A stretch of DNA of 64,000 bases from a virus. The stretch is from the IMG/VR virus record IMGVR_UViG_3300026488_000022, positions 1 to 64,000 of that record. One strand, given 5' to 3'. Shown here one piece after another: positions 7,524 to 48,965 of this stretch. Positions within the stretch are counted from its first letter, which is position 1. Every line of letters begins with the position of its first letter. The translations under genes were made by a program, and so were the position numbers. The notes below the pieces were generated by a model. That model saw only the letters and a list, made by a program, of their open reading frames with translations, did not search any database and was not told where the DNA came from.

Positions 7524-7689
7524 AAAAGTAAAATTTATTTTAAAAGCTCTATTATAATATATAATAACTTTAAGGGTTTGGACACTTTGGACAGTAACAA
7601 AAAGCCCTAAAATTCGGACTTTTAATAACTTGCAAACATTTATAATCAGTAAAAAATGTCATTTCGGCGGTCAAGAACATTTTATAATT
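7524..7689. repeat. Dispersed intergenic element, copy A
   Basis: ACTTTAAGGGTTTGGACACTTTGGACAGTAACAAAAAGCCCTAAAATTCGGACTTT-38 bp-ATTTCGGCGGTCAAGA, near-identical to copies C-F. Confidence 0.97.
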
Positions 7690-8161
7690 AATTTAAAAGA
7701 CCATACAAAGCAAGAGCATAGGCATCAACTAAATCATCAATTTTTTTATATTTTTTACTAAATAAATCTATAATCTCTCCTGGTGTAGCCTCAATCATAT
7801 CCTCTTTTTTTGCTCTTCCATTTTTAGTATAAAATTTCTTAAGTGTTGTAGGAGGAACTAACATAACTTCGTAATGCTTTTTTAAATCATAAAAAACACT
7901 TCCTAATAACATTGCTAAATCTACTATTTTTCCTTTAGAATGTAAAGAAATGTCCTCTATAATAACTTTTGTAAAAACATCTCTATGTTGCCTAACATAT
8001 TTTTTTACAATATCATTGATTTTTAAAGCTCTTTCTTTAATATTTTTACCCTCTGGAGAAATTAATTTAAAATCTAATAAACCTCCTGAATTTGATAAAA
8101 CTACAATTCCCGTATTTGTAGTAGATAAATCAATACCAATATAAAAATACTTACTTGTCAT
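7688..8161 (-). CDS. RuvC-like Holliday junction resolvase
   Basis: YIGIDLS, IIED, PTTLKK, GRAKKEDM, DDLVDAYALA. Confidence 0.88.
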   Translation of the reverse strand: MTSKYFYIGIDLSTTNTGIVVLSNSGGLLDFKLISPEGKNIKERALKINDIVKKYVRQHRDVFTKVIIEDISLHSKGKIVDLAMLLGSVFYDLKKHYEVMLVPPTTLKKFYTKNGRAKKEDMIEATPGEIIDLFSKKYKKIDDLVDAYALALYGLLN

Positions 8162-8164
8162 TAA

Positions 8165-8404
8165 TTAGCCTCCATAACTATCATCATAAACAATTTTAGC
8201 TCTACCCCTTGCTTTTACATAAACATTTTGATTACCTGTATATTTAAAGAAATCTCCTATTATATAAGCACTAACACTATCTTCATTTGTAGGCTCGTTG
8301 TCTCCTATAAATACTAAAACTTCTCCTTGCTGAACTTGAAAAACACACATACCACTTTTTAATAAAATCCAATTTTGTTCATCTAAAAATTTTGAAACAG
8401 TCAT
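8165..8404 (-). CDS. Hypothetical protein
   Basis: ORF with AAGGAG RBS, tightly packed in the late operon. Confidence 0.6.
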   Translation of the reverse strand: MTVSKFLDEQNWILLKSGMCVFQVQQGEVLVFIGDNEPTNEDSVSAYIIGDFFKYTGNQNVYVKARGRAKIVYDDSYGG

Positions 8405-8413
8405 TTAAACTCC

Positions 8414-8782
8414 TTATACTAATTCAATTTTTATTTCACCATTATCAACATAAAGTCTGTATTTTTTACTTGTATCGCTTCTATCTACTAAAACTAAACC
8501 TTTTGTTTCATCAGTATAAACAATATCCTCGCTAACTTGTGTATTAGCCAAATTACTTAAATCTATATTAGCTTTATCGTCTAAATCTGATTGATAAGCT
8601 ACATTGATATTATCTGCTTTTGTTTTAAAGTCTATATCAGAAACATTCGATAAATCTTTATCTGCTTTATCATCAACATTATCTATTAAATCATTTAAAA
8701 TAGAAAAATTATTATTACAAATAATTCTCCAAACTTTACTACCTGCCTCTATTGTCTCAATTCCATTACTTAAAATAGCCAT
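8414..8782 (-). CDS. Short fibre-like virion protein
   Basis: NNNFSIL head motif, repeated DKADKDLSNV/DKANIDLSNL, C-terminal YRLYVDNG typical of trimeric fibres. Confidence 0.5.
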   Translation of the reverse strand: MAILSNGIETIEAGSKVWRIICNNNFSILNDLIDNVDDKADKDLSNVSDIDFKTKADNINVAYQSDLDDKANIDLSNLANTQVSEDIVYTDETKGLVLVDRSDTSKKYRLYVDNGEIKIELV

Positions 8783-8784
8783 TA

Positions 8785-9198
8785 TTAATCCTTTCTAATC
8801 GTTTTCTGAAAATGAGAAGTATCAGGTTTTTTCCAGAAACCACCCCATCTATTTAATGGACTCAAACGTTCCCAAAACTCCCCAAATTTTTTTAAATCAT
8901 TCTTATTATACGTTAAAACATACTTATTTTCAACAGGTTTAAAAAAATTCAAATCAATTGCTAATCTCTGTAAATGTTTTGAACTTTTTGTCCAACTTAA
9001 TTTTTTATCTTTAATTAAACAAATAGGCTTAGTTGTTTCTTCACACTCTCGCACTCTATAACCATAATAATAAAGTAATTGCATATCATAAGGACGATAC
9101 AATTCCCCTCCTGTAACCAACCATCCTTCTTTTTGAATATAATCAATTAATCTTGCTAAATCATTTAAAAATTCATTTTGTAAAAAAACAAGTTTCAT
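8785..9198 (-). CDS. Endolysin, M15-family (L-Ala-D-Glu) peptidase
   Basis: GELYR, SKHLQRLAIDL (SxHxxxxAxD), RWGGFW..D..HFQ. Confidence 0.85.
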   Translation of the reverse strand: MKLVFLQNEFLNDLARLIDYIQKEGWLVTGGELYRPYDMQLLYYYGYRVRECEETTKPICLIKDKKLSWTKSSKHLQRLAIDLNFFKPVENKYVLTYNKNDLKKFGEFWERLSPLNRWGGFWKKPDTSHFQKTIRKD

Positions 9199-9208
9199 TT
9201 TTAATCCT

Positions 9209-11422
9209 TTATATTAATATAGCCTTAATTTTTTCACTTTTATAATCATTTTTATAAACACTTTCAACATATATATCATTAATATTATAAGAGCTTACAT
9301 CAAAACTAACTATTGTATCATATCTATCAAATGCATAAGTTTTTAATAAATTATTTCCTTCATAAATATTTAATTGTAAATACTCCTCTGTTTGAGCTTC
9401 TGCGTCCCCTGCTACAACCATATCTGCGTCTTGCAAATCACCACTTAAACCGCCTCTAATAGCTGGTGATACATATAAAATATTGTTTTTAATATATGGA
9501 TTGACCGGATTTAAAGGTTTAAAAACAAAAACATCATTAATTTCTTTTTGCAAATTAGAACTTGGAGATATACTATACATATTTTTATAATAAAAATCAT
9601 AATCCAAAGAAAATTCATTACTACTAATTAAAGTGGCTTCACTGAAATAATTATAAAATACCCAAACTTTACTATCAGCAGTATGCTCTGATTTATTACC
9701 ATTTAAGTTTCTAATAATTCCCTCAATTGTCAATTTTTCAGTAGTACCATTATAACTGATATTTTTAACCGAAATTAACTCATTATTAACAAAAACAGTA
9801 ATTTTCAGTTTTTGCCACTCTTCATCACTTAAATTGTAATTATAAGCTTTACCTTTTACATTTTTTAAAACAAATGTAAAATCTCTATCTATATCTTTTG
9901 TAAAAGGTAAATCAGACTCTAACTCACCATATACAAACAAACCAGACAAATAAGTATTGCTATTATGGTTATTTTTTTCATATACACTGCTAACAATACC
10001 ATTTGTTGTTTTAGCACACACAGGTAATAAATTATACTTTCTTTCTTCTAAATTAGGATTTAAAAACAAATTATTTAAAGGTAATAAATCATAAAATTCT
10101 GGCGGGTCATTTAATTGATAAGTTTTAATAAGAGGGTCGATTGTAGTTTTGTATAATCCATCAGTTTTTGGGACTCTATAAATATCTTCAATCGCCTCAA
10201 TTTCGACATAAGACTGATATTCCTTGTCCCCTCCTATTTTTATAATCCTAAAATACATTTCAGGAATATTTAAACTTTCACTTTTTACTTTTACCAATTT
10301 TCCTATATGTAAATCAGGAAAGTCAAGAAAGTTTAGTTTGCACTTTAAAGTAGCCAATGGTTTTCCGTTTTTTTCAATAATTTTATTAGCAACTTTACTC
10401 ATAGTCTCCGCATTGCTAATTAGCTGAAAAGTATAAGTTTTTGGTTTTTCATACCCTAAAATATTGACTAAAGCCTCATTTTTAATTGTGAAACTATCAG
10501 TATTTCCTGTTGCTAAATTTGTATATTTAAAAGTAAAAGTAGTAAAAACATTAGACCAATCTCCTGTTTTTATTGTCAAATCACTTGCATTATATTCATT
10601 TATCTCATATGCAGGTGTATCTTCTTTTTTTATTAAATAAATTTTCCATTTACCATCTAAAATAGAATAATAAAGCGTTCCATCAATTACTCTTAAAACT
10701 TCTTTTATCCAATCAGTTATAGGCTTTTCAGTAGTCATAATAAAAGACACACCTAAGCCCTCATTTTTACAATAATCAAAAGCCTCTTGAAAACTAACTT
10801 CATCTATTTCATTCTCTGGAATACCAATAAAAGTTCTTAGCATATCATAAATAACAGCAACAGGATTAATATCATAACCTATAGCACTGCCTTTTTGATA
10901 AATATTATTTCCTTCAAAAAATGCATTTTCTAAAACCCATCTTGATAATCTAAATTTATAATTAGGAACTTGAGTTGTATTATCCCCTACAAAAGCGTCT
11001 TTAAAAATTGCACAACAAATATTATTTATTTTAACTTTATCTAATAAAGGATAATCAAAAGTGACAGTCCCGCTTTTTGAGGAAACAGGATAAGATAAAC
11101 CCCTAACTCTACTATCTTCACTATTAAGACTATTGGTATAAATCCTTATGATACTTTTTTCAGAATAATCAGAATGATAAACATCACCCTTTCTACCAGT
11201 AACAACATTTAATTCATAAATCCCTTGTGGAGCATTCTCACTATATAAAGCGGAAGGATTAATATCCCCTTCTCCGTCTAACGTTTTTAAATACTCAATA
11301 TTATCATTCCAACTATAACCTGATACCCAATCGCAATTTTCTACTAAAGCATAAACCATTGTTAAGGCATAGCCATAACCTACTAATTGGCAACCACCTC
11401 CTCTTTTACCACCTCCGCCCAT
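9209..11422 (-). CDS. Central tail tip / baseplate hub protein (lambda J / GTA megatron-like)
   Basis: MGGGGK start, INPVAVIYDML, EGLGVSF, follows DUF2163-like and small tip genes. Confidence 0.75.
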   Translation of the reverse strand: MGGGGKRGGGCQLVGYGYALTMVYALVENCDWVSGYSWNDNIEYLKTLDGEGDINPSALYSENAPQGIYELNVVTGRKGDVYHSDYSEKSIIRIYTNSLNSEDSRVRGLSYPVSSKSGTVTFDYPLLDKVKINNICCAIFKDAFVGDNTTQVPNYKFRLSRWVLENAFFEGNNIYQKGSAIGYDINPVAVIYDMLRTFIGIPENEIDEVSFQEAFDYCKNEGLGVSFIMTTEKPITDWIKEVLRVIDGTLYYSILDGKWKIYLIKKEDTPAYEINEYNASDLTIKTGDWSNVFTTFTFKYTNLATGNTDSFTIKNEALVNILGYEKPKTYTFQLISNAETMSKVANKIIEKNGKPLATLKCKLNFLDFPDLHIGKLVKVKSESLNIPEMYFRIIKIGGDKEYQSYVEIEAIEDIYRVPKTDGLYKTTIDPLIKTYQLNDPPEFYDLLPLNNLFLNPNLEERKYNLLPVCAKTTNGIVSSVYEKNNHNSNTYLSGLFVYGELESDLPFTKDIDRDFTFVLKNVKGKAYNYNLSDEEWQKLKITVFVNNELISVKNISYNGTTEKLTIEGIIRNLNGNKSEHTADSKVWVFYNYFSEATLISSNEFSLDYDFYYKNMYSISPSSNLQKEINDVFVFKPLNPVNPYIKNNILYVSPAIRGGLSGDLQDADMVVAGDAEAQTEEYLQLNIYEGNNLLKTYAFDRYDTIVSFDVSSYNINDIYVESVYKNDYKSEKIKAILI

Positions 11423-14313: not shown

Positions 14314-15300
14314 TTAGTATTTTTCCGAAACTATTTCAAATTCACTTTCCTCAACTAAAAGTGCTAAATTTAATTTTGAAGCAATGTCATAAACTTCAGG
14401 AAAACGATAACATAACTTTTGTTCTCCATTAATATCTTTAATATTTACAATATTTGGGTGATAGTAACTACTAATAGAATAATTCTCATAACTATAACCA
14501 ATAAATTTCCACTCTTCTACATCAGTATCAAAATTTGTATCTACAAAATAAGCAATAGGGCAAGCACTAACACTACTATTAGGTTGTGGGTAATGCCTAA
14601 AACCAACTGATTTATCTACATCAAGTTTGTGTTTTCTCGTAAGAATTCCACTTTCAGTATCTCCCCACCAATAACCATTATAAAAAATCAATGCTTTATC
14701 AGCAGTTTCGTGCCAATAATTAGTTATATACATTCCTCCGTTATCTTTATCTAAACAATTAAATACTTGAAATTTGAAAAATCCATTAAAATAAATTCTA
14801 TCTTCATAACGCCCAAGTAAAATTTGGGGTAAAGTAAAACTAATACTATAATCGGTTATCAACAAATTAACCAAAAAATTACTATAAATTTTAGGTTGTG
14901 GATTATAAGGCAAATAATCCATTAAAGTTTTAAACGTTTCACAATTTGTACCGTCACTTATAGCTCCTTCTTGTTCGCATAAATCCTTGCTACTATCATA
15001 ACTTTTACAAGGTATAAATTTTAAATACTGTTTATCATCATCACTATCATAATAATATTTAAAAATTAAATGTGGCTCATAATTTAACCCACTAACTTTA
15101 TTTTTAACAATCAATAAACCTATACCGTTTCTACCCCACTTATCTGTGGCAGTTTGGACTTCAACAATCTCCCAAGCATTAGTTCTATAATTTAAAGCCT
15201 TATATAATTCATTTAAAATAGACCAATTCTCTTCAGGTGTATCTACAACACTATCTAAACCTGTTGTCATATCTAAACTTTTAAACCAAGTTAATTTCAT
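14314..15300 (-). CDS. Probable virion structural protein (tail region)
   Basis: Long ORF in the tail operon; no recognised motif. Confidence 0.45.
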   Translation of the reverse strand: MKLTWFKSLDMTTGLDSVVDTPEENWSILNELYKALNYRTNAWEIVEVQTATDKWGRNGIGLLIVKNKVSGLNYEPHLIFKYYYDSDDDKQYLKFIPCKSYDSSKDLCEQEGAISDGTNCETFKTLMDYLPYNPQPKIYSNFLVNLLITDYSISFTLPQILLGRYEDRIYFNGFFKFQVFNCLDKDNGGMYITNYWHETADKALIFYNGYWWGDTESGILTRKHKLDVDKSVGFRHYPQPNSSVSACPIAYFVDTNFDTDVEEWKFIGYSYENYSISSYYHPNIVNIKDINGEQKLCYRFPEVYDIASKLNLALLVEESEFEIVSEKY

Positions 15301-15303
15301 TTT

Positions 15304-17196
15304 TTACTCCTCATTTAATTCTACAAGATAGTTATATGGTGCTTTTATATGATTATCAGGAATAACTATATGCTTAACACCATTTATATAAACTTCAGTT
15401 TCTGGTTGAATTTCAGTAAAATTAATCAAATATAACCATTTAGGACTACCAAAATTAATAATTTTCAAATCATCAGCAATATTTCTGTATTTATTAACTT
15501 TAATAACAGAAATACTTTGATTATCATTTATAATTTCTCGCCACTCTCCAGATAAAGCCCCATCTGAAACATAATTATTAACCCAAGATGTACCATTCCA
15601 AAAACTTGTATTATCATTATACATTAAACCAAACCTAAAACTATCATTATTCACATCATAAGCATTATTACCCCCCCAACCTAAAACAAAAGGTAAATCA
15701 TATGTCTTATCTCCTTCTCCCCAACCTAAATAAAAAATTTGATAAGTTGGATTTTCAGTTTGAGAAGGGTCATATTTTTTTAGAACAATTAAAATATCTT
15801 CTCCATCAGTTACGTACCAATACTTTTCAATCATTTCATTATGCAATCCCCAATGTAATTTAGGAATATAAAAATTAATGTTTTCATTAAAAGAAACATT
15901 AGTAGCTCTATTCATCTGGTAATTCCACTCATAATTAGGTACAACATAAATACTTGAATTTAAAGATTGTAAATAGTCCTCTGTTTCTCCAATAAAATTA
16001 ACTACGTTAAAAAATCTAATTTCATTATTTTTAATTTGTAAAAAACCACTTTTATTAGTTTGAAGTAAAACATTTTTATATAAGCCTGTATCATTAAACA
16101 AAGAAATATAAAAATCATTTAATTCTTTAGGAGGAAAGCCATTTTCATCAAAACTATTTATTTCCTCTTCTGTTAATAACCTATCCCAAACATAATAACT
16201 GCTTACATAAACAGGAGCATCAATTTGTTTTCCAAATAGTCCTTTAAAATTTTTCCATTTATCATTTTGTAAATTATCAACAACTTTTACACCATCAACA
16301 TACACACTTAATTTACCTTCTGTACTATTAATCAAAACAACCAAAGTAACAGGACCTTTTCCTTCTACAATATCCACAATATTACATAAAACTTCATCAT
16401 CAAAATATAAATTACCATCTCTTAAGTCAGTTTGAATATAAAAATTCTTTTCACTTGTGTAATAATCAGAAGTAAAATTAGAAATATACATTCTATTTAT
16501 ATAATAATTATTAGATAAATCAGCTTTTACTAACTCACCAAATTGGGCGTGTAGTACCAGCGTAACATCCCCGTCAATACTATGAGATGAAGAATTAATG
16601 TCAGAACAATAAACTCTCCCATTTCTAAAGGGAGCAATTTTCTCAAAAGAATAATGAGTAGCTCCTATATTCCCTCCTCTACTAAAATAAATTTTTTTGT
16701 TTTTATATTTATTAAAATTCTGTGTTCTTCCTACACTACCAATTATATGTGTATAAGTTACATCAAAACCATAAGTTCCAGCAATCCAAGCTTTATTAAC
16801 TTCTACGTCGTTTTCTTCAAAGTTGGCTAAAACTTTAAAGGGTTTTGAGCTTCCTTTAATAACATCAATAGTTACAATATCTCCATCTTGCCACTCATTC
16901 TCCCCCTGTCTAATTGTAAAACTAATAATACCATTATCATAGGCTTGGTCTATTTGTGCGTCATCTTTTGCACCACTAACGCTACCTGTTACCTTAAAAA
17001 CATCATTAGTTGCGTCATATTTTATTTCCCAAGTTTCTGTGACAACTGTATCTGGATTAAAAGTAATATTTTCAATATTCCCATCTCCTTGTGCTAAATC
17101 ATAGCTTGTTTCCATACTCACAGGGTTACTTAAAAACTCTACTAAATTATCAATAGCTTCTTTTACTGTTTTTTTACATTCAACTCTATATGCCAT
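15304..17196 (-). CDS. Tail structural protein with a TETW...YDNGII module and a LamG-like insert
   Basis: Module shared with both tail-tube paralogs; LSVYVDG...VWDRLLTEEEI resembles LamG/ConA. Confidence 0.55.
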   Translation of the reverse strand: MAYRVECKKTVKEAIDNLVEFLSNPVSMETSYDLAQGDGNIENITFNPDTVVTETWEIKYDATNDVFKVTGSVSGAKDDAQIDQAYDNGIISFTIRQGENEWQDGDIVTIDVIKGSSKPFKVLANFEENDVEVNKAWIAGTYGFDVTYTHIIGSVGRTQNFNKYKNKKIYFSRGGNIGATHYSFEKIAPFRNGRVYCSDINSSSHSIDGDVTLVLHAQFGELVKADLSNNYYINRMYISNFTSDYYTSEKNFYIQTDLRDGNLYFDDEVLCNIVDIVEGKGPVTLVVLINSTEGKLSVYVDGVKVVDNLQNDKWKNFKGLFGKQIDAPVYVSSYYVWDRLLTEEEINSFDENGFPPKELNDFYISLFNDTGLYKNVLLQTNKSGFLQIKNNEIRFFNVVNFIGETEDYLQSLNSSIYVVPNYEWNYQMNRATNVSFNENINFYIPKLHWGLHNEMIEKYWYVTDGEDILIVLKKYDPSQTENPTYQIFYLGWGEGDKTYDLPFVLGWGGNNAYDVNNDSFRFGLMYNDNTSFWNGTSWVNNYVSDGALSGEWREIINDNQSISVIKVNKYRNIADDLKIINFGSPKWLYLINFTEIQPETEVYINGVKHIVIPDNHIKAPYNYLVELNEE

Positions 17197-17226
17197 TTAT
17201 AGCCTTTTTATTGATTTACTAAAAGG

Positions 17227-17234
17227 TATATCGG
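17227..17234 (-). promoter_or_regulatory. Putative late promoter CCGATATA
   Basis: 31 bp upstream of start 17196; motif recurs before most late genes. Confidence 0.65.
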
Positions 17235-17267
17235 AAATAAAAAATTACAAAACGAAAACTTTAAAAC

Positions 17268-17287
17268 TTCCCCTAAATTTAGGGGAA
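17268..17287 (-). terminator. Probable intrinsic terminator after the tape measure gene
   Basis: Perfect palindrome TTCCCCTAAATTTAGGGGAA followed by GTTTT on the minus strand. Confidence 0.6.
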
Positions 17288-17317
17288 ACTAAAGATTTTT
17301 CTTTCTTATATTATAAC

Positions 17318-17340
17318 TAACTTTAAGGGTTTGGACACTT
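17318..17340. repeat. Dispersed element, truncated copy B
   Basis: TAACTTTAAGGGTTTGGACACTT, ending at the tape measure stop codon. Confidence 0.9.
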
Positions 17341-25477: not shown

Positions 25478-25482
25478 AAAGT

Positions 25483-35516: not shown

Positions 35517-35524
35517 TATATCAG
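35517..35524 (-). promoter_or_regulatory. Putative late promoter CTGATATA
   Basis: 32 bp upstream of start 35485. Confidence 0.65.
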
Positions 35525-35714: not shown

Positions 35715-35743
35715 TTGACATAAAGTTAAAAGTGTTTTATAAT
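35715..35743 (+). promoter_or_regulatory. Consensus sigma70 early promoter (cassette type)
   Basis: TTGACA-17 bp-TATAAT. Confidence 0.88.
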
Positions 35744-35780
35744 TCTAAGCATAAAACAAAAAACAAAAGGAGAATTGAAA

Positions 35781-35906
35781 ATGAAAAGAGATTTTAATAT
35801 TTTAAAAATATATCAAAGAGAAATAAATTGCAGACCAAAAGTTGTTAAAAACAAAAAGAAATATACAAGGAAAGTAAAGCATAAAAAAGCTTTACTAAAC
35901 TTTTAA
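35781..35906 (+). CDS. 41-aa basic peptide, ArfA-like (alternative ribosome rescue factor resemblance)
   Basis: Not in the track. MKRDFNILKIYQREINCRPKVVKNKKKYTRKVKHKKALLNF, with promoter and AAGGAG RBS; RxxVxKNKK..YxRKxKH pattern. Confidence 0.55.
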   Translation: MKRDFNILKIYQREINCRPKVVKNKKKYTRKVKHKKALLNF

Positions 35907-37229: not shown

Positions 37230-37260
37230 TTATATTCCTTTTTGTTATTTTACTATTAAA

Positions 37261-37268
37261 TATATCAG
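37261..37268 (-). promoter_or_regulatory. Putative late promoter CTGATATA
   Basis: 32 bp upstream of the portal start. Confidence 0.65.
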
Positions 37269-37289
37269 TATAAAAAACAAAAGGAGAAA

Positions 37290-37424
37290 AAATGAAAAAG
37301 AAGAAAGAGCGGAAGCTCAATTGAAGCTTGTTTTACAAACCTCAATTGAACGCCCATTTCAGGCGTTCTAAATCAAACACCCATTTCAGGTGTTTTAAAT
37401 TGAACACCCACCCCAGGTGTTCTA
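37290..37424 (-). ncRNA. Candidate late small RNA of three tandem 27-nt hairpins plus a terminal hairpin
   Basis: Units 37344-37370, 37371-37397, 37398-37424 with compensatory stem changes; upstream CCGATATA; U-rich end. Confidence 0.5.
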
Positions 37425-37428
37425 CTAT

Positions 37429-37436
37429 TATATCGG
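37429..37436 (-). promoter_or_regulatory. Putative late promoter CCGATATA not followed by a CDS
   Basis: Sits 5 bp from the hairpin array. Confidence 0.55.
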
Positions 37437-37439
37437 AAA

Positions 37440-38492: not shown

Positions 38493-38501
38493 TTTTTCTC
38501 C

Positions 38502-40367
38502 TTATATTATTTTCATTAATTTGTAATGTCCTACAAAAGTATTGACATTATCTTCAGGGTCTGTTGTAAAAACAGGAAAATTACGCACACTAACTACACT
38601 TGATAACCATTGACTAAACAAAACATCTCCAGAATTATCAACTTTAATCATTCTAAAATGATATACACCGTTTTTGTCTAAATTATAAATTTTATTTCTT
38701 GTAAATTTTCCTACTGGAACTAACCTACCTTGTGCCTCCTTGTTATCAGGAATATGTTTTTTAGCTGGTGATTTACTGTCTCTTGCCCAAACTTCTATAA
38801 CAAAACCATCTGGCAAATCAGTTTCTTTTGGAAACTCAGCTATATAGGCTAAATTTGGACTTGCTTTTTCTACATCAATTGTATAATCACGATTATTGAC
38901 GCCTTTATAATGACAGATGTAACGCTCAAAACCATAACTTGTATTAACTAAATCTACACTATCTAAATAATATCTAATACCTCCTTGGTCAGTAATAAAT
39001 TTAGTTATCATTTTTGGTCTTGAAATTATAAAATTTGCACCTTCTTTTCTATATAAAACAAGCTTATAATCTCCAAGACCGATTGGCTCAACATATTCAA
39101 TTTTTATTTTATCATCATCGTTTAAAGCAGAATTAAACTTTAAATGAGTTGTATAATCTGGATTTAAACTTTCAACTTGGTCGCCAAAATCCCAATCTTC
39201 AAACACCTCATCATTAACATAAACTTTAATTAAATTTCTACTTTTATAAATATATCTTTTTAAAAACAACAAATTTTTACCTGAAATATCTTCCCCTTTT
39301 CTGTAAATAAAAACTTTATTAGTCGGGTCAGCACTTAGATTAAAACTAAAAAGCTCTCCTGTTGAGGTATCCACTCCAATTACATAAGGGTTATTAGGTT
39401 TTGCTTTAGGATTTTTACCATATGCATAAAAAATAGGATTATCTTCTTTTGTAAATTGATAATTGGTTTTTTTAACAATAAAATAAGGACTTAAACTTCC
39501 AAAATCATCACCTAAAACCACATCATATTGAGCATTATCACCATAAGCACCTACTACAAGTTGTGTGTCAGTTAAATTTCCGCCTTTCCCAGCAAGATAA
39601 GTTTGGTAAAAATTATCACCATACATTGTTAAGAATACTTGTTTGGCATACGGGTCAGCTGATGTAGAGGCAGTAAAACTTGCTCCTGTATAATTATCAT
39701 CATTATTTGTATTTGTAGCATTAAATTCTACAATACCATAAGCATTTCTTTCAATATAAACTCTTTGGACGTTTTCGGTGTTTTCATTAGGTACTAATTG
39801 TTCCCCTATGCCTGTATCTGCGTCTTCTTTTTTCCAATAAGTTTTAGTATCAATAATATCACAAATATCTTTAGGTGTGTATCTCCTCACTTCATTAACT
39901 TCACAAGGATTTTGTTTTTCGGCGTCTGATATTTTATGTATCTGAACTCCAAGATAAAACCAATTTGGATTACCTTCATCATCTGTTCTTGCCTCATATA
40001 AACCAGCTTTTTTCCTATTGAAAAAAACCCAAGTTCCTGTTGCTTTTTGTACTAACCATTGCTCACCGAGATGGTCTGCTGGGTCTGGCAAATCAGCATA
40101 AGTTTCAACTTCGCCTTCCCAACCATCAAAATTTGCATTACCTCCTAAGCTAACTTCAACCCAACTAAGCAAATCGTCTTGTAATTGCCAAAATTTTTGG
40201 TCTTCTTGATTATAAACAACCATTCCTACTTTTTTTCTTAAGTCAGGAATGTTATCACGTTCTTCAGTTGTTGCTACAACACGAAAACCACCTTCTAAAT
40301 GAATATCCTCAATTAACGGATATTCACCACCGCCTGTATCAAATTTACCTGTTATTTTAATTGCCAT
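38502..40367 (-). CDS. Fibre-like virion protein
   Basis: GGFRVVATTEERDNIP...GMVVY and GEVETYADLP motifs typical of phage fibres. Confidence 0.6.
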   Translation of the reverse strand: MAIKITGKFDTGGGEYPLIEDIHLEGGFRVVATTEERDNIPDLRKKVGMVVYNQEDQKFWQLQDDLLSWVEVSLGGNANFDGWEGEVETYADLPDPADHLGEQWLVQKATGTWVFFNRKKAGLYEARTDDEGNPNWFYLGVQIHKISDAEKQNPCEVNEVRRYTPKDICDIIDTKTYWKKEDADTGIGEQLVPNENTENVQRVYIERNAYGIVEFNATNTNNDDNYTGASFTASTSADPYAKQVFLTMYGDNFYQTYLAGKGGNLTDTQLVVGAYGDNAQYDVVLGDDFGSLSPYFIVKKTNYQFTKEDNPIFYAYGKNPKAKPNNPYVIGVDTSTGELFSFNLSADPTNKVFIYRKGEDISGKNLLFLKRYIYKSRNLIKVYVNDEVFEDWDFGDQVESLNPDYTTHLKFNSALNDDDKIKIEYVEPIGLGDYKLVLYRKEGANFIISRPKMITKFITDQGGIRYYLDSVDLVNTSYGFERYICHYKGVNNRDYTIDVEKASPNLAYIAEFPKETDLPDGFVIEVWARDSKSPAKKHIPDNKEAQGRLVPVGKFTRNKIYNLDKNGVYHFRMIKVDNSGDVLFSQWLSSVVSVRNFPVFTTDPEDNVNTFVGHYKLMKII

Positions 40368-41905: not shown

Positions 41906-43264
41906 TTACACGACCTGAATTTGTAAATTTTGCAATTTCCACCACCCACTTGTTAAATACCTTAAAGCACCTACGGACAAATCAAAATGTCCGTCCTTGT
42001 TTCTTTCTATTGTTTTTCCATTGCTATTTTCTTTCCAATGAGCTAATTTTAATTCTTCAATCAATTGCATACAATTTTCTGATATGAATAATTTTCCTTT
42101 TTGAAATGCCGTGTTAATGTCCCTAATGCTTTCTACTAATTGAATTGGTGCGGGTTGTGTATAGTAACTATAACTATACGCCATATCTGCCATTGTCAAA
42201 CTTGCACTTGGGTCACAAAATCTTACAATCTGCATATCAGGATTTTCACAATATCTTTGTTCTATTTCTCTAAAATGTTTAATGTGCCATTCAATAGGCA
42301 TTTGCCCCGCCATATATTCATCTAAAACATAAATATTACCAGTCATTGGCTCTATCCAAGCCATAACAAAACTTGTATTGTCCCTAAAACCAATATCAAT
42401 TCCTACTGCAAACGTATCTTTTGTTGTCATTTTATTTTTTAAATCACTAACTCTAAATACATTTTTTTCTAAATCAAAAGCATAAAATACCTGCAAATCC
42501 TCACTAAACCCACTTTGAAACTCACATAAATATTCTTGTTCAAAACTTCTTTTATCAAGTTTTGCTTTTATTGACTCAATCATTTCTTTTGTTATCATAG
42601 GATTATCATAAACTGTAACTTTTTTACAAAAATAATCGTTTCTTTGCCCACATCTTTTCCATAACTTATAAAAATCATTATCAAAAGTTCTTGGTGTTCC
42701 TATAAAATAAGTTTTAGAAAACATAAAGCCGTTTTCATCAGTACCATAATCGTTTTGTGCTGGTGAAATGTAGGTTTCCCAAATTTCAAGAACATTATTT
42801 ATACTCGCAGTTTCATCAAAAATAACTAAACTGAATTTATCTCCAAGTGCATTTTCATAATTTTTTTCTGTAACTACACGAAATTTAGCACCATTTTCTA
42901 ATGTAAATGTTAAACCTTTCATATCCTTTGATTTAAAAGGTAATTGTAGTTTATTTACATCTTTTTCAACATTACTAAAAATAGCTTGTGCATTTGCAAA
43001 TGTAGGTGTTACTAATAATATACTTGCATTAGGAATTAAAAGTTCTGACAATGCAATTTTTGACATAATTGTAGATTTACCTGCCCTTCTTGACATTAAA
43101 AAAACACCAACATTAAAATCAGCTTTTTGTATCCTATCAATTATCTCTTGTTGATATTTTGTAGGTGTAAATTCTAACAATTTTAATACTTTATTATAAT
43201 CAATTTTTCTTTTTACTTTTTTATAAAGTTCTATTTCTTGATTTACAGGTTTAAATTCTGACAT
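41906..43264 (-). CDS. terL: Terminase large subunit
   Basis: Walker A SRRAGKS, Walker B LVIFDE, GTP coupling motif, FEQEYLCEF, nuclease GIDIG. Confidence 0.95.
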   Translation of the reverse strand: MSEFKPVNQEIELYKKVKRKIDYNKVLKLLEFTPTKYQQEIIDRIQKADFNVGVFLMSRRAGKSTIMSKIALSELLIPNASILLVTPTFANAQAIFSNVEKDVNKLQLPFKSKDMKGLTFTLENGAKFRVVTEKNYENALGDKFSLVIFDETASINNVLEIWETYISPAQNDYGTDENGFMFSKTYFIGTPRTFDNDFYKLWKRCGQRNDYFCKKVTVYDNPMITKEMIESIKAKLDKRSFEQEYLCEFQSGFSEDLQVFYAFDLEKNVFRVSDLKNKMTTKDTFAVGIDIGFRDNTSFVMAWIEPMTGNIYVLDEYMAGQMPIEWHIKHFREIEQRYCENPDMQIVRFCDPSASLTMADMAYSYSYYTQPAPIQLVESIRDINTAFQKGKLFISENCMQLIEELKLAHWKENSNGKTIERNKDGHFDLSVGALRYLTSGWWKLQNLQIQVV

Positions 43265-43299
43265 TAAATCTTCCTTTTTAATAGATTGTAATTTTAAGT

Positions 43300-43307
43300 T
43301 ATATCAG
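43300..43307 (-). promoter_or_regulatory. Putative late promoter CTGATATA
   Basis: 36 bp upstream of the terL start. Confidence 0.65.
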
Positions 43308-43497
43308 TATAAAATAAAAGTAAAATTTAATTTAAGAATTCTATTATAATATAATAATAACTTTAAGGGTTTGGACACTTTTGGACAGTAGCAGAAAGCC
43401 CTAAAATTCGGACTTTTAATAACTTGCAAACATTTATAATCAGTAAAAAATGTCATTTCGGCGGTCAAGAACATTTTATAATTTTTGTAAAAAACTC

Positions 43498-43526
43498 TTG
43501 ACATAAAGTAAAAAATGTTTTATAAT
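43498..43526 (+). promoter_or_regulatory. Consensus sigma70 early promoter (cassette type)
   Basis: TTGACA-17 bp-TATAAT. Confidence 0.88.
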
Positions 43527-43557
43527 TCCAATACAAATAAAAACAAAGGAGAATAAA

Positions 43558-44022
43558 ATGGAATATAGCGTAATAATAAATCTAACTCAACATAAAGCAA
43601 CTGAAGAACAAAAACAGGCAGGTGTGATAGACCTGCCAGAAAAATATCAAACAAAATTAAGAACACTTTTAACGTTTAATGAATTACCAAATTGTAAAGA
43701 AATCACTAATAGAGCTGAAAAAATAGGAGATTTAGTTTTAGAATTTTTATCAGATAATTTAAGTCCTGTTAAAAACGAAGTTGAACAAATTTTAAAATTA
43801 GATGAAATTAAACAAATTGAAGAATTTGAAAAACTAAATTTAGGTTTTATGATAGGTGGAGCGCCTTATCTTATGGGCGCTTTAGAAGAAGAACTAAGTT
43901 ATTTTGGGACACCTTTATATGCCTTTACAAAAAGAATTGTAGAAGAAATAAAAAAATCAGACGGAACAGTAGAAAAGAAAGCAATATTCAAACACGAAGG
44001 CTTTGTTCCTGCTTGTATTTAA
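43558..44022 (+). CDS. Csx20/Csx15-like CARF-related protein; candidate cyclic-oligoadenylate ring nuclease
   Basis: NLTQH..TEEQ, MIGGAPYLM, PLYAFTKR..EE....DG...K..IFKH..F match my recollection of the Csx20 pattern. Confidence 0.55.
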   Translation: MEYSVIINLTQHKATEEQKQAGVIDLPEKYQTKLRTLLTFNELPNCKEITNRAEKIGDLVLEFLSDNLSPVKNEVEQILKLDEIKQIEEFEKLNLGFMIGGAPYLMGALEEELSYFGTPLYAFTKRIVEEIKKSDGTVEKKAIFKHEGFVPACI

Positions 44023-44546
44023 TCTTTTATAACTTGATTTAAAATATTGACAAAAACATTTCCTGTTGTTCCTAATTTTTTTCTTTCTTCTTCTTTCATA
44101 ATATCATCAAGCATTTTAGCTACATCTAAAATATCTTTGTCAGTAGCATTAGCAAAATCACCTCCTTGTTTTTCAATTTGTTCTATTTTATCTTCTAATG
44201 TTCTCATAACAACAGAAACTACAACATTTTTAGCATTTTCTTTTATTTCTTTCATAATTGCATTATAAAAATCTTTAACATAAGGTTTTGATAAAGTTCT
44301 ACTAATATATTGATATGGCAAACCAAGTTCAATTGCTATTCTTTTATTGCTATAACCTTTTGCTTTCATTTCTACAATATATCTTTCAACTGTTGATAAA
44401 GGTTTATCGAAATTAACATTTGTAAATTCTAAAACTTCAGTAGAAACTTTATTGTTTTTAACATTAGCGTCTGGTAAATTTTCTAATTCTTCTTTTTCTA
44501 CAACTGCCACAGGAGTTATTTCTTTAGTTTCTTTATTCTTCATCAA
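44019..44546 (-). CDS. Probable terminase small subunit
   Basis: HTH (GYSNKRIAIELGLP..YIS), helical body with TDKDILD, nearest same-strand gene upstream of terL; T5-like. Confidence 0.7.
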   Translation of the reverse strand: MMKNKETKEITPVAVVEKEELENLPDANVKNNKVSTEVLEFTNVNFDKPLSTVERYIVEMKAKGYSNKRIAIELGLPYQYISRTLSKPYVKDFYNAIMKEIKENAKNVVVSVVMRTLEDKIEQIEKQGGDFANATDKDILDVAKMLDDIMKEEERKKLGTTGNVFVNILNQVIKD

Positions 44547-44778
44547 AATGCCTTTTATTTACAGTATTACTAAATTTAATTACTAAATCTTTAATTACTT
44601 CATCTTCTATTTTTATTTTCTTGTTTTTTTCTTGACAAACATTACAACGTGTTTTTAATTCTAATTCTTTTAGACTTTCAACAAAAAATACATTAGAACA
44701 AGAGCAAACAACTTCATATTTTTTTAATTCTTCATTATAAACATAATCTAATAAAGGACTAATTTTATCTTTTTTCAT
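44533..44778 (-). CDS. Small zinc-ribbon protein
   Basis: CSC and CNVC. Confidence 0.5.
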   Translation of the reverse strand: MKKDKISPLLDYVYNEELKKYEVVCSCSNVFFVESLKELELKTRCNVCQEKNKKIKIEDEVIKDLVIKFSNTVNKRHFDEE

Positions 44779-44809
44779 TTTAAACCTTTTTATTAATTAT
44801 AGCTTAATT

Positions 44810-45121
44810 TCATTTTATTTTCAATTTTTTTATAATTTCTGTTTCTATTAAATATAAAAAATTAGCTCCTTTGTGAGCCATAACACCGCCTATTGCACTT
44901 GCTCCATAAACGCTTATATCCATTAAATCATAAGCAAGAATAAAACCTATTAAACCTAAAAAACTTGCATAAAATAAATCTAAAAAATATAAAAAAATTT
45001 TAGATTTTAATGATTTATTTTGTAAATCTCTTTGTGTAAAATTAATAGACGTAGCCCAAATAATAAAACCCATTAATAAAATATATGCTTTTATAGAAAT
45101 TTCATCCCACTTATTTTTCAT
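44810..45121 (-). CDS. Small membrane protein, possible second holin
   Basis: Three hydrophobic segments, A.GG..AH.G motif, own late promoter. Confidence 0.5.
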   Translation of the reverse strand: MKNKWDEISIKAYILLMGFIIWATSINFTQRDLQNKSLKSKIFLYFLDLFYASFLGLIGFILAYDLMDISVYGASAIGGVMAHKGANFLYLIETEIIKKLKIK

Positions 45122-45154
45122 CTTTTAAAACCTTTATATTTTAATGTTATTAAA

Positions 45155-45162
45155 TATATCAG
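45155..45162 (-). promoter_or_regulatory. Putative late promoter CTGATATA
   Basis: 34 bp upstream of start 45121. Confidence 0.65.
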
Positions 45163-45320
45163 TATAAAAATAAAAGTAAAATTTAATTTAAAAAACTCTA
45201 TTATAATATATAAAAACTTTAAGGGTTTGGACACTTTGGACAGTAACAAAAAGCCCTAAAATTCGGACTTTGTTGATAACGTAAATTAAATTTTAGTTGT
45301 TTTTTGTTAATTTCGGCGGT
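45155..45320. repeat. Dispersed element, copy G (unrelated 38-bp spacer)
   Basis: Left box to 45271, spacer 45272-45309, ATTTCGGCGGT at 45310-45320 inside the DUF1353 3' end. Confidence 0.93.
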
Positions 45321-45688
45321 ATAGAAGTTTTTATTATTTGAGGCAATTTATATTTAAAAAAATGATAAAATTTAACTGCATAATAAAAAAGATAACTTGT
45401 AAATTTTCCTACTTTTAAATCTAATAAGCAATTTAAGAAACATTTATCAGCCTTATCGTAGAGTTCTAAATTACAAAGATAATCGTGTAAAATAGCACAA
45501 GGTAAATAATCAGGTCTATATTTTGTATAGTTAAAAAGATATGCTATAAAAGGCACACTTGCTCCATCACTTTTAAAACCTTTTGGAATTTTTATGCTCT
45601 TATAATAAAAAGGTTTGACAACCTTAAATTTGTTATTTTTTAAAGGTTGTAACCAAACATCGCTATATTTTAACATTTTTAATTCCAA
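45293..45688 (-). CDS. DUF1353-family protein
   Basis: IPKGFKSDGASVP...AILHDYLC...AD..F. Confidence 0.85.
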   Translation of the reverse strand: MELKMLKYSDVWLQPLKNNKFKVVKPFYYKSIKIPKGFKSDGASVPFIAYLFNYTKYRPDYLPCAILHDYLCNLELYDKADKCFLNCLLDLKVGKFTSYLFYYAVKFYHFFKYKLPQIIKTSIPPKLTKNN

Positions 45689-46195: not shown

Positions 46196-47170
46196 TTACT
46201 CTCCTTGAATTAAATATAAAATTTTAACTTCATCATCATTTAAATTTCTTGTGAATATCCTAACATCATCAATTGTTCCGCTTTGTCTATAACCCGCATT
46301 TCTGCCCCAACCAAACAAATATAAAGTATCGTTAAAAACCATACTATATCTGTTAATTGTGCCACAGTTTTGAGCTAAGTTTTGCTTTTCACCGTTAAGG
46401 TAAATATCGCCATATTCTCCCTTTCTAAAATTAACTGATAAATGCACCCACTGATTTTTATATTTTAAAAAATTAAAACCAAAATTATCGCTATTAGCAG
46501 TATTAAAACCAAGTTTTCCATTTCTGCAAATATAAATATCACATTCTTTAAAACCAAATGGCATAGTATAATCCCTGCCATTCCATTTAAACCACATTGA
46601 AATATTTAACTCTTCTGTATTTACATTAAAAGGTAAATTTTTTATTTGAATTTGTCCCCAATCAGAATAAACAGCTAAATTTTCTTTACCTTCAACGTAT
46701 CTTATGCCTCCTACTATTGTTCCTCTATATTTTCCGCTAACATCAAGGACATTTCTATTAAATTTAAACAAAGCAATACCACTACCATCGCCAAAAACAT
46801 CAACTTTTTCAAAAGGCGGAACATTCATAATTGTTGTTCCTTTATTTCCTACCCAAATGTTATCATTATTATCATTTTTAACACATTCAAACATTTCTGA
46901 AGTTTGAATATTATACCATTTAAAACCTTTAAAAGCCGGGTTAAAATTAACAGTAGGATTTTCTAAACTTATAATGTTAGCTATATTTTTAGTAATTTTA
47001 TCTACTACTTTTAGTTTGCCGTTATTTATTAAATCTCTTGCTTTTTGGTTTTTTACATCTTCTTTTAAATAACATTTATAAACAACATTTTGACGTTCGA
47101 TATTTAAAATTACAATTAAATCATCTTTTTTTCCGGTTATTAAACTATCTAAATTTTCTATATAAAACAT
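46196..47170 (-). CDS. Fibre/receptor-binding protein with LamG-like domain
   Basis: ISMWFKW, QWVHL, IYLNG, GTIDDVRIFTRNLNDDEVKILY. Confidence 0.75.
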   Translation of the reverse strand: MFYIENLDSLITGKKDDLIVILNIERQNVVYKCYLKEDVKNQKARDLINNGKLKVVDKITKNIANIISLENPTVNFNPAFKGFKWYNIQTSEMFECVKNDNNDNIWVGNKGTTIMNVPPFEKVDVFGDGSGIALFKFNRNVLDVSGKYRGTIVGGIRYVEGKENLAVYSDWGQIQIKNLPFNVNTEELNISMWFKWNGRDYTMPFGFKECDIYICRNGKLGFNTANSDNFGFNFLKYKNQWVHLSVNFRKGEYGDIYLNGEKQNLAQNCGTINRYSMVFNDTLYLFGWGRNAGYRQSGTIDDVRIFTRNLNDDEVKILYLIQGE

Positions 47171-47184
47171 AAAAACTCCTTATT

Positions 47185-48747
47185 TTAATTAATTTGATAT
47201 CCCCAAAGTTCGTCTTTATAAACATTACCATTACCATCTGCCCAATAAACAACGAAGCTTGAATTGTCATTTTCTTTAATCCCCCCTAAAACAAAAGTAG
47301 GTTTGTCTAACGGCTCTAATAATGCCACTGCATTATCATCATTTGCAATAAAATTAATAAACATCATCGCACGTCTTGTATCGTTGGCTTCTCCGTCATT
47401 ATTAATTAATTTTAGTCCGTTAGGTAAGTTATAAAATTTAATACTATCTTCATCACAATCAACTTCCATTCTTGTTGCATTATCTATGCTTGTGTATTTT
47501 GAGCTTGTAGCTCTAATATGCAAATGTTTTTTGTTATTTGAATTGTTATACCAATCAATCCTTGCTTGTGCCGGATAAGCAGTACCTAAACCAAAATTAT
47601 AACCTACCCAATTATCAGCACTTGTTGTGTCTTTATAAGCAAGATAAGTGCCACTATCTCCAGCTACAACATCATAAACGTTAATATTTGAACTTGTAAC
47701 ATCTACACCTAAACCAAGTGTTCCTGTTGTCCAATTATATTTTAAACTTTTTCCTAAAGTTGAACTTGCATTGTAATTGTCGTTTTGACTTATAACAACA
47801 TCGTAATTTACATAATCATTAGTTTTAACAGCTAATGCCTTCCATTCGTTTGAGTTACCTTTTCTTCTAACTATAATTTCTTCAGCGGAATTATCGTAAA
47901 TTAACTGCCCACCTTTTGGGTATTCGTTAATATCATTTTTCCAATCTTCAATTTTTTGATAAACAACATCGTGTGAATTTGCAGGTAAATAAACCCAGCT
48001 ATCACTCCATAAAACAAAACCTGAATATTTAATTTCTTTATTACCAACTAACGAAGTTTTACCTTTAAACCAACCAAAATGTCCATTTGAATTATAAATA
48101 GCAAGGTTTTGATTTTCATAATCAATCCAATAATAACCATCTTCGGGTGTTCCTTGTCCTGTGGCTGGGTATCCTGTGACATAATTAAAGCGATTATCCA
48201 TAGAACGATTAAAATCCCAACCAAAACCATCACGTGCTTTAATTGCATTTGAACGACCACAATATAGATTGTAATTATTTGTATTTCCATCAATAGAAAT
48301 ACCAGCACCAATGACACCATATTGATTAACAGCAAATTGAACTTGTGAGGTATAAGCTTGTATAATTTTTTCGCTATGTGTAAAAATTCTCAATGGTGTA
48401 ACACCATTATTATCAACAGTTGTATCAATATTTAGTGCTGAATTTGTACCTTGTGGGTTATGTTGTAAATATGGACTTGTTACAGCTTTGTCTCCGTTAA
48501 TTTTATATAAAAACTTTCCATTTTCACCTTCAATTGTTGTTCCGTATTTTATTTTTAAAAGTTGTCCATTATCAATTGCGTCTGTTACACTTACTCCAAC
48601 AACATCATTTGGATTAGCTACTAAAACATAATATTCAAAAATATCTTGGTCTGTTTGGATTTTTAAAATTTCACCTTTTCTAAACTTATTAAGCCCTGTA
48701 AATTGAATATCAACTACTGCAAAATTACTATGGGTGCTTATAGACAT
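47185..48747 (-). CDS. Fibre/receptor-binding-like virion protein
   Basis: Beta-rich, Gly/Asn-rich; N-terminal domain shared with 37440-38492; first gene of the late region. Confidence 0.55.
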   Translation of the reverse strand: MSISTHSNFAVVDIQFTGLNKFRKGEILKIQTDQDIFEYYVLVANPNDVVGVSVTDAIDNGQLLKIKYGTTIEGENGKFLYKINGDKAVTSPYLQHNPQGTNSALNIDTTVDNNGVTPLRIFTHSEKIIQAYTSQVQFAVNQYGVIGAGISIDGNTNNYNLYCGRSNAIKARDGFGWDFNRSMDNRFNYVTGYPATGQGTPEDGYYWIDYENQNLAIYNSNGHFGWFKGKTSLVGNKEIKYSGFVLWSDSWVYLPANSHDVVYQKIEDWKNDINEYPKGGQLIYDNSAEEIIVRRKGNSNEWKALAVKTNDYVNYDVVISQNDNYNASSTLGKSLKYNWTTGTLGLGVDVTSSNINVYDVVAGDSGTYLAYKDTTSADNWVGYNFGLGTAYPAQARIDWYNNSNNKKHLHIRATSSKYTSIDNATRMEVDCDEDSIKFYNLPNGLKLINNDGEANDTRRAMMFINFIANDDNAVALLEPLDKPTFVLGGIKENDNSSFVVYWADGNGNVYKDELWGYQIN

Positions 48748-48776
48748 TTTGTCTCCTTATATTGCTACTTTAAACA

Positions 48777-48784
48777 TATATCAG
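48777..48784 (-). promoter_or_regulatory. Putative late promoter CTGATATA
   Basis: 30 bp upstream of start 48747. Confidence 0.65.
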
Positions 48785-48805
48785 TTTAATATATAAGCTA
48801 TAATA

Positions 48806-48965
48806 ATTATAAAATGTTCTTGACCGCCGAAATGCTATTTTTCATTGTTTGTAGATAATTATAGTTTGTTAAAAGTCCGAATTTTAGGGCTTTCTGCTAC
48901 TGTCCAAAGTGTCCAAACCCTTAAAGTTATAATATATTATAATAGAGCTTTTAAAACAAAATTTT
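48806..48965. repeat. Dispersed element, copy H (inverted, divergent 38-bp spacer)
   Basis: ACCGCCGAAAT 48823-48833, spacer 48834-48871, AAAGTCCGAATTTTAGGGC...TGTCCAAAGTGTCCAAACCCTTAAAGT. Confidence 0.95.

Follow-up and report, generated by a model that had tools for sequence, protein, structure and literature searches.

Background

T4-type phages carry PeSLs, repeated intergenic cassettes that combine a stem-loop with a promoter and mediate modular shuffling (PMC2839356, PMC4122927). The middle promoters of T4 join a MotA box at about -30 to a sigma70 -10 element and need both MotA and AsiA, in the process termed sigma appropriation (PMC6755090, PMC2988021). Here we analyse a repeat in the first 64 kb (64,000 nucleotides (nt); the window) of the virus record IMGVR_UViG_3300026488_000022, a contig of 80,614 base pairs (bp) whose ends overlap by 127 bp, so that the assembly is circular. 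The initial annotation of the window had described this repeat as an eight-copy element with two conserved boxes, box 1 and box 2, at a constant distance from each other. We find that the repeat is real and looks functional; it is of an ordinary kind, found here in a new setting and with a core that is not of the sigma70 type, and we see a roughly even chance that it is a PeSL-like terminator/promoter cassette which marks the operon boundaries of the late region and needs a phage factor.

The genome is that of a tailed, siphovirus-type phage. It has 27% G+C and 73% A+T, and nearly every gene is on the minus strand. Two relatives in the IMG/VR database are compared with it throughout: G1 (83.9 kb, large terminase 97% identical) and G2 (78.9 kb, large terminase 93% identical).

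Copies of the repeat and their placement

The repeat comprises seven full copies and one stump, copy B, every one inside the window; the remaining 16.6 kb of the 80.6-kb genome contain none. The 19-mer at the core of box 1 has seven exact occurrences against 0.02 expected, box 2 occurs seven times at one mismatch or less at the positions that had been reported for it, and the first 18 nt of box 1 recur at 17320-17337 in the truncated copy B. The earlier description of eight copies, of which A-G are direct, H is inverted and B is truncated, is thus confirmed. The copies are 84-100% identical across 104-296 bp, with a cassette of roughly 170 bp, and all of them lie between open reading frames (ORFs), except for the distal end of copy G.

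Their polarity relative to the downstream gene is identical in eight of eight copies, each ending 30-125 nt 5' of the start codon. Copy H, the one inverted in the window, flips where the genes flip, its downstream gene (49042-50928) being on the plus strand. The copies are limited to the late region and its borders, with none in the 31-kb replication/early region, and each stands 5' of another promoter: the late motif CYGATATA at B-G and a sigma70-like promoter at A and H. The copies are as follows.

7520-7690, minus strand: copy A, full; after the last gene of a tail operon (7688-8161) and before the FEN/ribonucleotide reductase operon (start 7459); sigma70-like promoter at 7490-7518; orthologous core at 11307 in G1 and 72363 in G2
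17299-17340, minus strand: copy B, stump with one GTCC repeat, CCTTAAAG and TATAAT only; abuts the tape-measure stop codon; downstream a strong CCCC/GGGG hairpin (-15.4 kcal/mol), then late motif CCGATATA at 17227
23296-23478, minus strand: copy C, full; before the tape-measure gene (start 23263); late motif CTGATATA at 23296-23303; divergent perfect sigma70 promoter at 23493-23521 (plus strand) towards cargo genes at 23553-24198
27752-27901, minus strand: copy D, full; ahead of the gene for the prohead protease (start 27721); ACGATATA at 27743; a position specific to this genome
35517-35700, minus strand: copy E, full; between the portal gene and a gene for 92 amino acids (aa; start 35485); late motif at 35517-35524; divergent sigma70 promoter at 35715-35743 (plus strand); core at the same junction in G2 (14284)
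43300-43483, minus strand: copy F, full; ahead of the gene for the large terminase (start 43264); late motif at 43300-43307; TATTATAATA at 43341-43352; CCTTAAAG and GTCC repeats at 43361-43387; stem-loop at 43395-43416; spacer at 43417-43454; box 2 at 43455-43465; divergent sigma70 promoter at 43498-43526 (plus strand) towards a cargo gene at 43558-44022
45155-45345, minus strand: copy G, full; before a holin-like gene (start 45121); unrelated 38-nt spacer at 45272-45309; box 2 (45310-45320) and about 25 nt beyond form a genome-specific tail of a DUF1353 gene (stop codon 45293)
48799-48980, plus strand: copy H; before a sigma70-like extended -10 promoter (48975-49003) and the gene for a 628-aa protein; on the box 2 side a divergent late promoter at 48777-48784 (minus strand) for a 520-aa gene

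Anatomy of a full copy

Read on the gene strand, a full copy runs from the distal box (box 2, whose reverse reading is TTGACCGCCGAAAT) through the spacer and box 1 to TATTATAATA, followed after 30-125 nt by the ATG. Of the three GGAC repeats in box 1, two are separated by 9-10 bp and the third follows after another 26-27 bp; they lie beside TATTATAATA, which is an A+T palindrome. Depending on whether 9 or 10 bp separate the GGAC repeats, box 1 measures 56 or 57 nt, and therefore the element as a whole is not rigid.

On the gene strand the core consists of one or two GTCCAAA repeats and CCTTAAAG, with a -10-like TATTAT(AAT) 8-9 nt further on, which places the GTCC/CCTTAAAG block at roughly -37 to -21 relative to this box. 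The pattern CCTTAAAG-N8/9-TAT[AT][ATC][CT] is present in 17 of 17 copies from the three genomes, copy B being a poorer fit, and GTCCRRA is nearly absent elsewhere than in the elements. The -35 position of the core is occupied by TCCAAA/AAACCC, and no consensus sigma70 promoter lies inside the repeat. Promoters of the sigma54 and sigma28 types were rejected for the core, the sequence showing no fit to either consensus by eye. A small ORF that overlies the element (66 aa in E and F) was likewise discarded, as a 1-nt indel between the GGAC repeats breaks the frame in other copies.

A stem-loop in the gene sense

In the gene sense the element contains, between the spacer and the core, a local hairpin, AAAGUCC-GAAUUUUA-GGGCUUU followed by U's, with a stem of 7-8 bp and a loop of 8 nt. 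For every variant checked, in this genome and for three different ones in G1, this hairpin is clearly more stable in the gene sense than in the antisense (-8.9 versus -4.0, -9.4 versus -4.4, -11.6 versus -6.2 and -7.2 versus -4.8 kcal/mol), because its G-U pairs would be C-A mismatches on the opposite strand. The hairpin also received a flag as terminator-like. Its range of -8.9 to -9.4 kcal/mol in the gene sense compares with -4.0 to -4.4 in the antisense, and downstream of the stem copies A, C, D and G have UUUUUGUU, whereas E, F and H have CUGCUAC. Judged from its sequence, the hairpin fits an attenuator or terminator acting in the mRNA sense just 5' of a promoter-like core, which is the layout of a PeSL.

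The folding of the element bears on a further possibility, which we hold to be very unlikely: a small plus-sense RNA that is antisense to the late genes would have box 1 as its 5' end and would fold via AAGGGUUU/AAAGCCCU. Its predicted start would be about 8-9 nt after TATAAT (GGATATA in the relatives), with the 5' end at ACTTTAAGG. A -10-like box does lie on that strand 8-9 nt upstream of CTTTAAGG in the three genomes, the conserved block begins at the predicted start, and the G-U pair of the proposed stem is available in the plus sense only. Yet the whole element (146 nt) folds no better than shuffled sequences on either strand (z from -1.4 to +1.6), and Rfam gave no match at gathering score across the window; for the stretch 43200-45400, with E-values up to 1 allowed, it gave none within the elements and one unrelated weak match outside them. 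A competing hairpin that uses the same GGGC is, moreover, 4-5 kcal/mol better in the gene sense for every variant, GATATA is lost in two G2 copies, and there is no consistent target, since cargo genes would be covered by some copies and the 3' ends of late genes by others. The plus-sense scaffold RNA that had been offered as an alternative for this element hence finds no support in the folding or in Rfam.

Core conservation and concerted evolution

What the three genomes have in common in these elements is GTCC[RR]A-[CG]-CCTTAAAG and an A+T stretch with TAT.. 8-9 nt later, and nothing else. There are eight copies here, four in G1 and five in G2. The cores of G1 and G2 stand at the same junctions as copies A (FEN operon), C (tape measure), F (terminase) and H (628-aa gene); the E junction is also common to G2, and B, D and G are unique to this genome. 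This retention of the core at orthologous junctions in two relatives supports the earlier view that the copies are not passive duplications.

Every copy nevertheless bears the version of its own genome, with AAAC, GGAG or GAAG between GTCC and CCTTAAAG and with a different downstream box as well. Copies of one genome are on average 71% identical to each other; between genomes the mean is 57% for copies at orthologous sites and 56% for those at different loci. Such genome-specific versions at orthologous junctions point to concerted evolution. Among the homogenised copies of this genome all four combinations of variants occur (a four-gamete pattern), and the copies cluster by genome and not by locus. 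Furthermore, the protease-to-capsid block, which follows the portal gene in G1 (35446-39045) and G2 (14349-17891), is flanked here (24229-27721) by the tail-completion genes on one side and the tape measure on the other, and the three junctions concerned carry copies E, D and C; the cargo genes at F and G also differ between genomes. The combinations of variants, the clustering by genome and the transposed block together show ongoing recombination among the copies, in keeping with recombination sites, one of the roles that the initial annotation had listed.

Given this mobility, one might ask whether the element is no more than selfish or neutral intergenic DNA, copied by recombination, which persists only because its promoter- and terminator-like sequence is harmless and whose boxes have no dedicated function. 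Near-identity over about 170 bp, far beyond the need of a binding site or promoter, would be in keeping with this, as would the variation in copy number (8, 4 and 5) among close relatives with B, D and G unique to one of them, the overwriting of a gene end by copy G, and the absence of the motif from more distant relatives; among the five homogenised copies, variable positions are equally frequent in the boxes and in the spacer. We nonetheless rate this explanation as distinctly unlikely, for all three genomes have kept the core at four orthologous junctions though the flanking intergenic sequence has been replaced, its orientation relative to the genes is strict, and the boxes of H and G are identical to those of other copies while their spacers differ by 32% (H) and about 75% (G).

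The 38-nt gap

The gap between GGACTTT and ATTTCGGCGGT measures 38 nt in seven of seven full copies, exactly as first reported. The spacers of A, C, D, E and F are near-identical, with 38-41 of 41 positions in agreement, which is in line with the earlier account. This is not so for the H spacer, which had been called largely different: it is identical to the common spacer in register at 27-29 of 41 positions against 14.5 expected (reached in none of 20,000 shuffles), and is a diverged homologue of the common spacer without indels. The G spacer, on the other hand, is truly unrelated to the common one, as had been stated (10 of 41 positions identical; p=0.53 in a global gapped alignment). A division of the spacers into three interchangeable types does not hold.

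Two possible sources of the G spacer were considered and left unsupported: the common spacer inverted in situ (20 of 41 positions identical; p=0.07 when taken singly, 0.38 with shifts and both strands) and an origin in the DUF1353 gene's own native 3' end (p=0.18 and 0.44). As a separate observation, the G spacer holds at 45283-45298 an exact inverted 14-mer, TAAATTAAATTTTA, of the promoter-proximal A+T stretch of the cassette (45177-45190), which may be a chance match in low-complexity DNA or a trace of where the spacer came from.

Box 2 of copy G does lie inside the coding 3' end of the DUF1353 gene, as reported, but it was not preserved by that gene. The 11-residue tail that contains it is found in this genome only, the orthologues of G1 and G2 stopping earlier and their homology ending just short of the element sequence; from this it follows that the element recombined into the end of the gene and created the tail.

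The distal box of G1 and G2 is ATACAAGAGTTTTG, which has TTGAC alone in common with box 2, so that the correspondence is uncertain. Its distance to CCTTAAAG is 97, 97 and 85 nt in G1 and 97, 75 and 75 nt in G2, and thus the spacing is not fixed in the homologous cassettes of the relatives. We conclude that the constant 38-nt gap mainly reflects common descent without indels. The argument that a length conserved without sequence places geometry under selection is accordingly weak, as it comes down to one independent case (G), with values of 75, 85 and 97 nt in the relatives.

The short GTCC direct repeats would suit the binding of a protein. In another reading, the four GYCCRAA-type sites (box 2, one arm of the hairpin and the two repeats) would be the operator array of a putative phage switch protein, and the core would have no promoter activity of its own. 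Such a protein would bend or loop the DNA, and thereby shut the divergent early promoter, insulate the late units, or both; phi29 p4, between the A2b/A2c and A3 promoters, provides an analogy. Copies C, E and F place the array exactly between the late promoter and a perfect sigma70 promoter that diverges from it, with box 2 ending 32 bp upstream of the divergent -35 box; A, D and G, however, have no divergent early promoter, and at 41.2 kb an early and a late promoter work as a pair with no array present. The spacing between box 1 and box 2 is fixed in seven copies, G included, yet the interval between the two repeats differs by 1 bp among copies, and in G2 there are copies with just one GTCC site. 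As for the relatives, their 75, 85 and 97 nt differ by about one and two helical turns, a pattern that is not significant with three values. On balance we consider this array unlikely.

Promoter classes and a proposed operon-boundary cassette

Apart from the cassettes, the genome has two promoter classes. Ten perfect TTGACA-17-TATAAT early promoters stand ahead of the replication/early genes and of small plus-strand cargo (orphan) genes in the late region. Several of these belong to a second repeat family of 80-100 bp, which adjoins C, E and F only, on the box 2 side, and fires away from the element. The late motif, C[CT]GATATA, is a single box 21-37 nt 5' of the ATG of about 12 late genes per genome; 37 distinct sites over the three genomes show no conserved -35 box. 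The phage encodes a sigma factor of 200 aa (genome positions 78647-79249), FliA and SigH being the closest matches to its region 2, and the late motif probably pairs with this FliA/SigH-like factor.

Perfect sigma70 promoters: window positions 3089, 23493, 35715, 41271, 43498, 52692, 57634 and 60928; genome positions 64844 and 76301
Late motif sites, all on the minus strand: 17227, 23296, 25470, 27743, 28446, 30925, 35517, 37261, 41218, 43300, 45155 and 48777

With early and late classes and a phage sigma factor at hand, a third, factor-dependent class becomes plausible. In the operon-boundary cassette that we propose, the stem-loop would probably damp read-through from the upstream operon, and GTCC/CCTTAAAG with TATTAT would form a phage-specific promoter or a loading site for a factor. 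As the core has no sigma70 -35 box, a phage-encoded factor that reads GTCC/CCTTAAAG should be needed; homologues of MotA or AsiA were not found among the proteins scanned, a subset of the ORFs. Transcription from the core would run into the downstream gene's own promoter and leader, and homologous recombination would spread and homogenise the copies and shuffle the gene blocks in between.

Several observations weigh against this proposal. The sequence at the -35 position of the core fits no known sigma consensus, and an activator was not found. The late promoters at 25470, 28446, 30925, 37261, 41218 and 48777 work without a cassette, and the core and the late motif are 31, 52-54 or 86 nt apart in this genome and 46-114 nt apart in G1 and G2. 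The core is thus dispensable and optional, a module separate from those promoters instead of a phased site for their activation. A strong hairpin follows the core within about 25 nt in copy B and, in both relatives, at the A junction, so that a promoter there would yield only a very short RNA. The stem-loop is itself short, with a U-tract that is interrupted in E, F and H, and a cassette of this kind explains neither box 2 nor its distance of exactly 38 nt in copy G despite an unrelated spacer. Among the sequencing runs listed with this phage there is no RNA run.

The strong hairpin after the core is palindromic, CCCCTAAATTTAGGGG (-15.4 kcal/mol), and has U-runs on both strands (window 17240-17300, minus strand; G1 11235-11290). 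In this genome it comes after copy B, and in G1 and G2 after the orthologous cores at the A junction; it is probably a bidirectional terminator.

The 628-aa protein

The protein encoded downstream of copy H had already been named in the initial annotation.

49042-50928, plus strand: 628-aa protein, one of the three members of an orphan family; no more than a candidate trans factor

Searches of 5.8 and 1.8 billion proteins returned three members of this family, and none beyond the three genomes. Pfam, PHROGs and NCBIfam were uninformative on it beyond a weak resolvase helix-turn-helix (HTH) match, which corresponds to a Hin/resolvase-type HTH near the C-terminus. In ESM Atlas models, residues 150-345 resemble LigD PrimPol, AEP-TOTE and PriCT at template-modelling (TM) scores of 0.50-0.56. 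Our own model of the domain (predicted local distance difference test (pLDDT) 65.5) gave generic palm/RRM-like matches only (Z at most 6.7, Foldseek E at least 0.16), and the full-length AF2 model is poor (pLDDT 44). The protein has conserved RFDIDD and ETTKGYQ stretches, and the canonical histidine of AEP motif II appears as a glutamine in the alignment, which counts against a PrimPol assignment. From the structural models, then, the protein may contain a PrimPol-like domain.

The initial annotation had regarded the copies as possible origins or priming sites, which would make the TTTGGAC/GTCC repeats iterons or sites of the adjacent 628-aa protein; we think this improbable, with little chance of being right. 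Copy H is directly upstream of the 628-aa gene in all three genomes, the direct repeats 9-10 bp apart adjoin a pure A+T palindrome, and the PrimPol likeness of the ESM Atlas models is accompanied by the C-terminal HTH. The protein also diverges between genomes as the element core does: it is 50% identical between this genome and the relatives and 85% between G1 and G2, which is among the strongest cases of this genome standing apart, and the core has the same outlier. The PrimPol of the vent phage NrS-1 recognises 5'-TTTGGTTA-3' (PMC8718748). That site has TTTGG in common with the repeats, a resemblance only.

Origins would be few and placed independently of gene orientation, whereas we find eight loci per 80 kb, each intergenic and co-oriented with its gene, in the late region and its borders, and none in the 31-kb replication/early region. 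As an iteron array, in a genome of 73% A+T, the element has a palindrome that is not conserved in G1 and G2 and a single repeat in some G2 copies. The strand bias of the hairpin toward the mRNA sense fits transcription better than origins, GC skew tracks gene orientation and nothing more, and the phage already encodes a DnaG-type primase, a DnaB helicase and PolA; the PrimPol assignment itself is unproven, given the generic matches of our own model. A fuller version, in which the TTTGGAC repeats and box 2 would be sites of the 628-aa protein at dispersed, co-oriented points of initiation or priming, with the 38 bp set by its geometry, has an equally small chance in our estimate. By analogy, promoter and origin would there be fused as at T4 oriF/oriG, but with an AEP-type initiator, and this we hold to be just as improbable.

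Iteron-type origins are exemplified by the octamer repeats of P4 ori/crr. The present element is like these and the NrS-1 site in having direct repeats about one helical turn apart beside A+T-rich DNA, the TTTGG core of the NrS-1 site and one copy directly 5' of a possible PrimPol-HTH gene. It differs in that there are eight dispersed, gene-co-oriented copies instead of one or two loci, in having one or two repeats per core and an unconserved A+T palindrome, and in that the initiator is putative.

Genome context and the search for carriers

The identified genes further include those for a ribonucleotide reductase, FEN, family-A polymerase (PolA), DnaB helicase, DnaG-type primase, ligase, ThyX and a 92-aa HTH protein (52412-52690), in addition to the following structural and packaging genes of the window.

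17339-23263, minus strand: tape measure, 1974 aa
24229-25443: HK97-type capsid
26303-27721, minus strand: prohead protease
35895-37229: portal
41906-43264, minus strand: large terminase

Compared with T5-like phages the large terminase reaches only 25-27% identity, a megablast search of GenBank phages returned no match, and the phage clade is without any cultured member. Exact box 1 strings had no match in IMG/VR; a degenerate core pattern gave multiple matches in G1 and G2 only, with one match each in other contigs. A metagenome scan with the terminase recovered the G2 contig and nothing further. In distant terminase relatives (38-44% identical) the cassette is absent and the core motif is not enriched against a control; in these the small terminase gene abuts the large terminase gene. 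The sequencing runs with DNA of this phage are hydrothermal-vent DNA metagenomes, and contigs from four runs gave fragmentary cover with nothing decisive on the spacer variants.

Other parts of the genome differ among the three phages in several ways. A group I intron (RF00028, 99.4 bits, E 2e-26; genome 65783-66051, minus strand) splits the family-A polymerase gene into ORFs of 613 and 305 aa; it is also present in G1, and in G2 the polymerase gene is continuous (896 aa). The ThyX gene (genome 70571-72358, minus strand; 595 aa) contains an intein with an HNH endonuclease, and its orthologues in G1 and G2 are of 274 aa without an intein. In G1, two ORFs of 161 and 615 aa (7528-9870, against window 3125-6529) replace two ribonucleotide reductase genes, which they do not match at E-values up to 1e-5. 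The G2 versions of these genes are only 44-55% identical; the nucleotide-metabolism module is thus mosaic.

Comparison with known systems

If the operon-boundary cassette is real, PeSL-like cassettes are not peculiar to T4-type myoviruses, and an unrelated, AT-rich vent phage uses a repeated stem-loop and promoter to punctuate its late operons and to shuffle gene blocks and cargo genes. GTCC-N4-CCTTAAAG-N8/9-TAT would then be a third class of promoter or operator beside the sigma70 early and the CYGATATA late promoters. The finding has no bearing on any long-standing open question; it is useful for the annotation of such metagenomic phages and offers a clean case of concerted evolution of regulatory DNA.

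The core is like the T4 middle promoters in that the -35 box gives way to a phage-specific motif from which a -10-like element keeps a fixed distance, often in tandem with a late promoter of the same gene, which implies a phage-encoded DNA-binding activator. The differences are that the core motif is unrelated to the MotA box, that the element is far longer and that its activity is here a prediction.

The likeness to the PeSLs (Arbiol et al. 2010; Comeau et al. 2014) is broader: conserved intergenic cassettes with a stem-loop and a promoter-like part are repeated along the genome and flank small orphan genes, the copies evolve in concert, and recombination between them leads to indels, replacements and block shuffling. 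In the present case the terminator and promoter roles are predicted from the sequence, and the promoter-like part consists of GTCC repeats and CCTTAAAG instead of a sigma70 consensus; the genuine sigma70 early promoter forms a module of its own, adjoining C, E and F only and pointing in the opposite direction. There is also an extra distal box at a fixed 38 nt. The carrier is an unrelated siphovirus-type genome and not a T4-type one, and its cassettes lie in the late structural region, whereas PeSLs occupy early hyperplastic regions.

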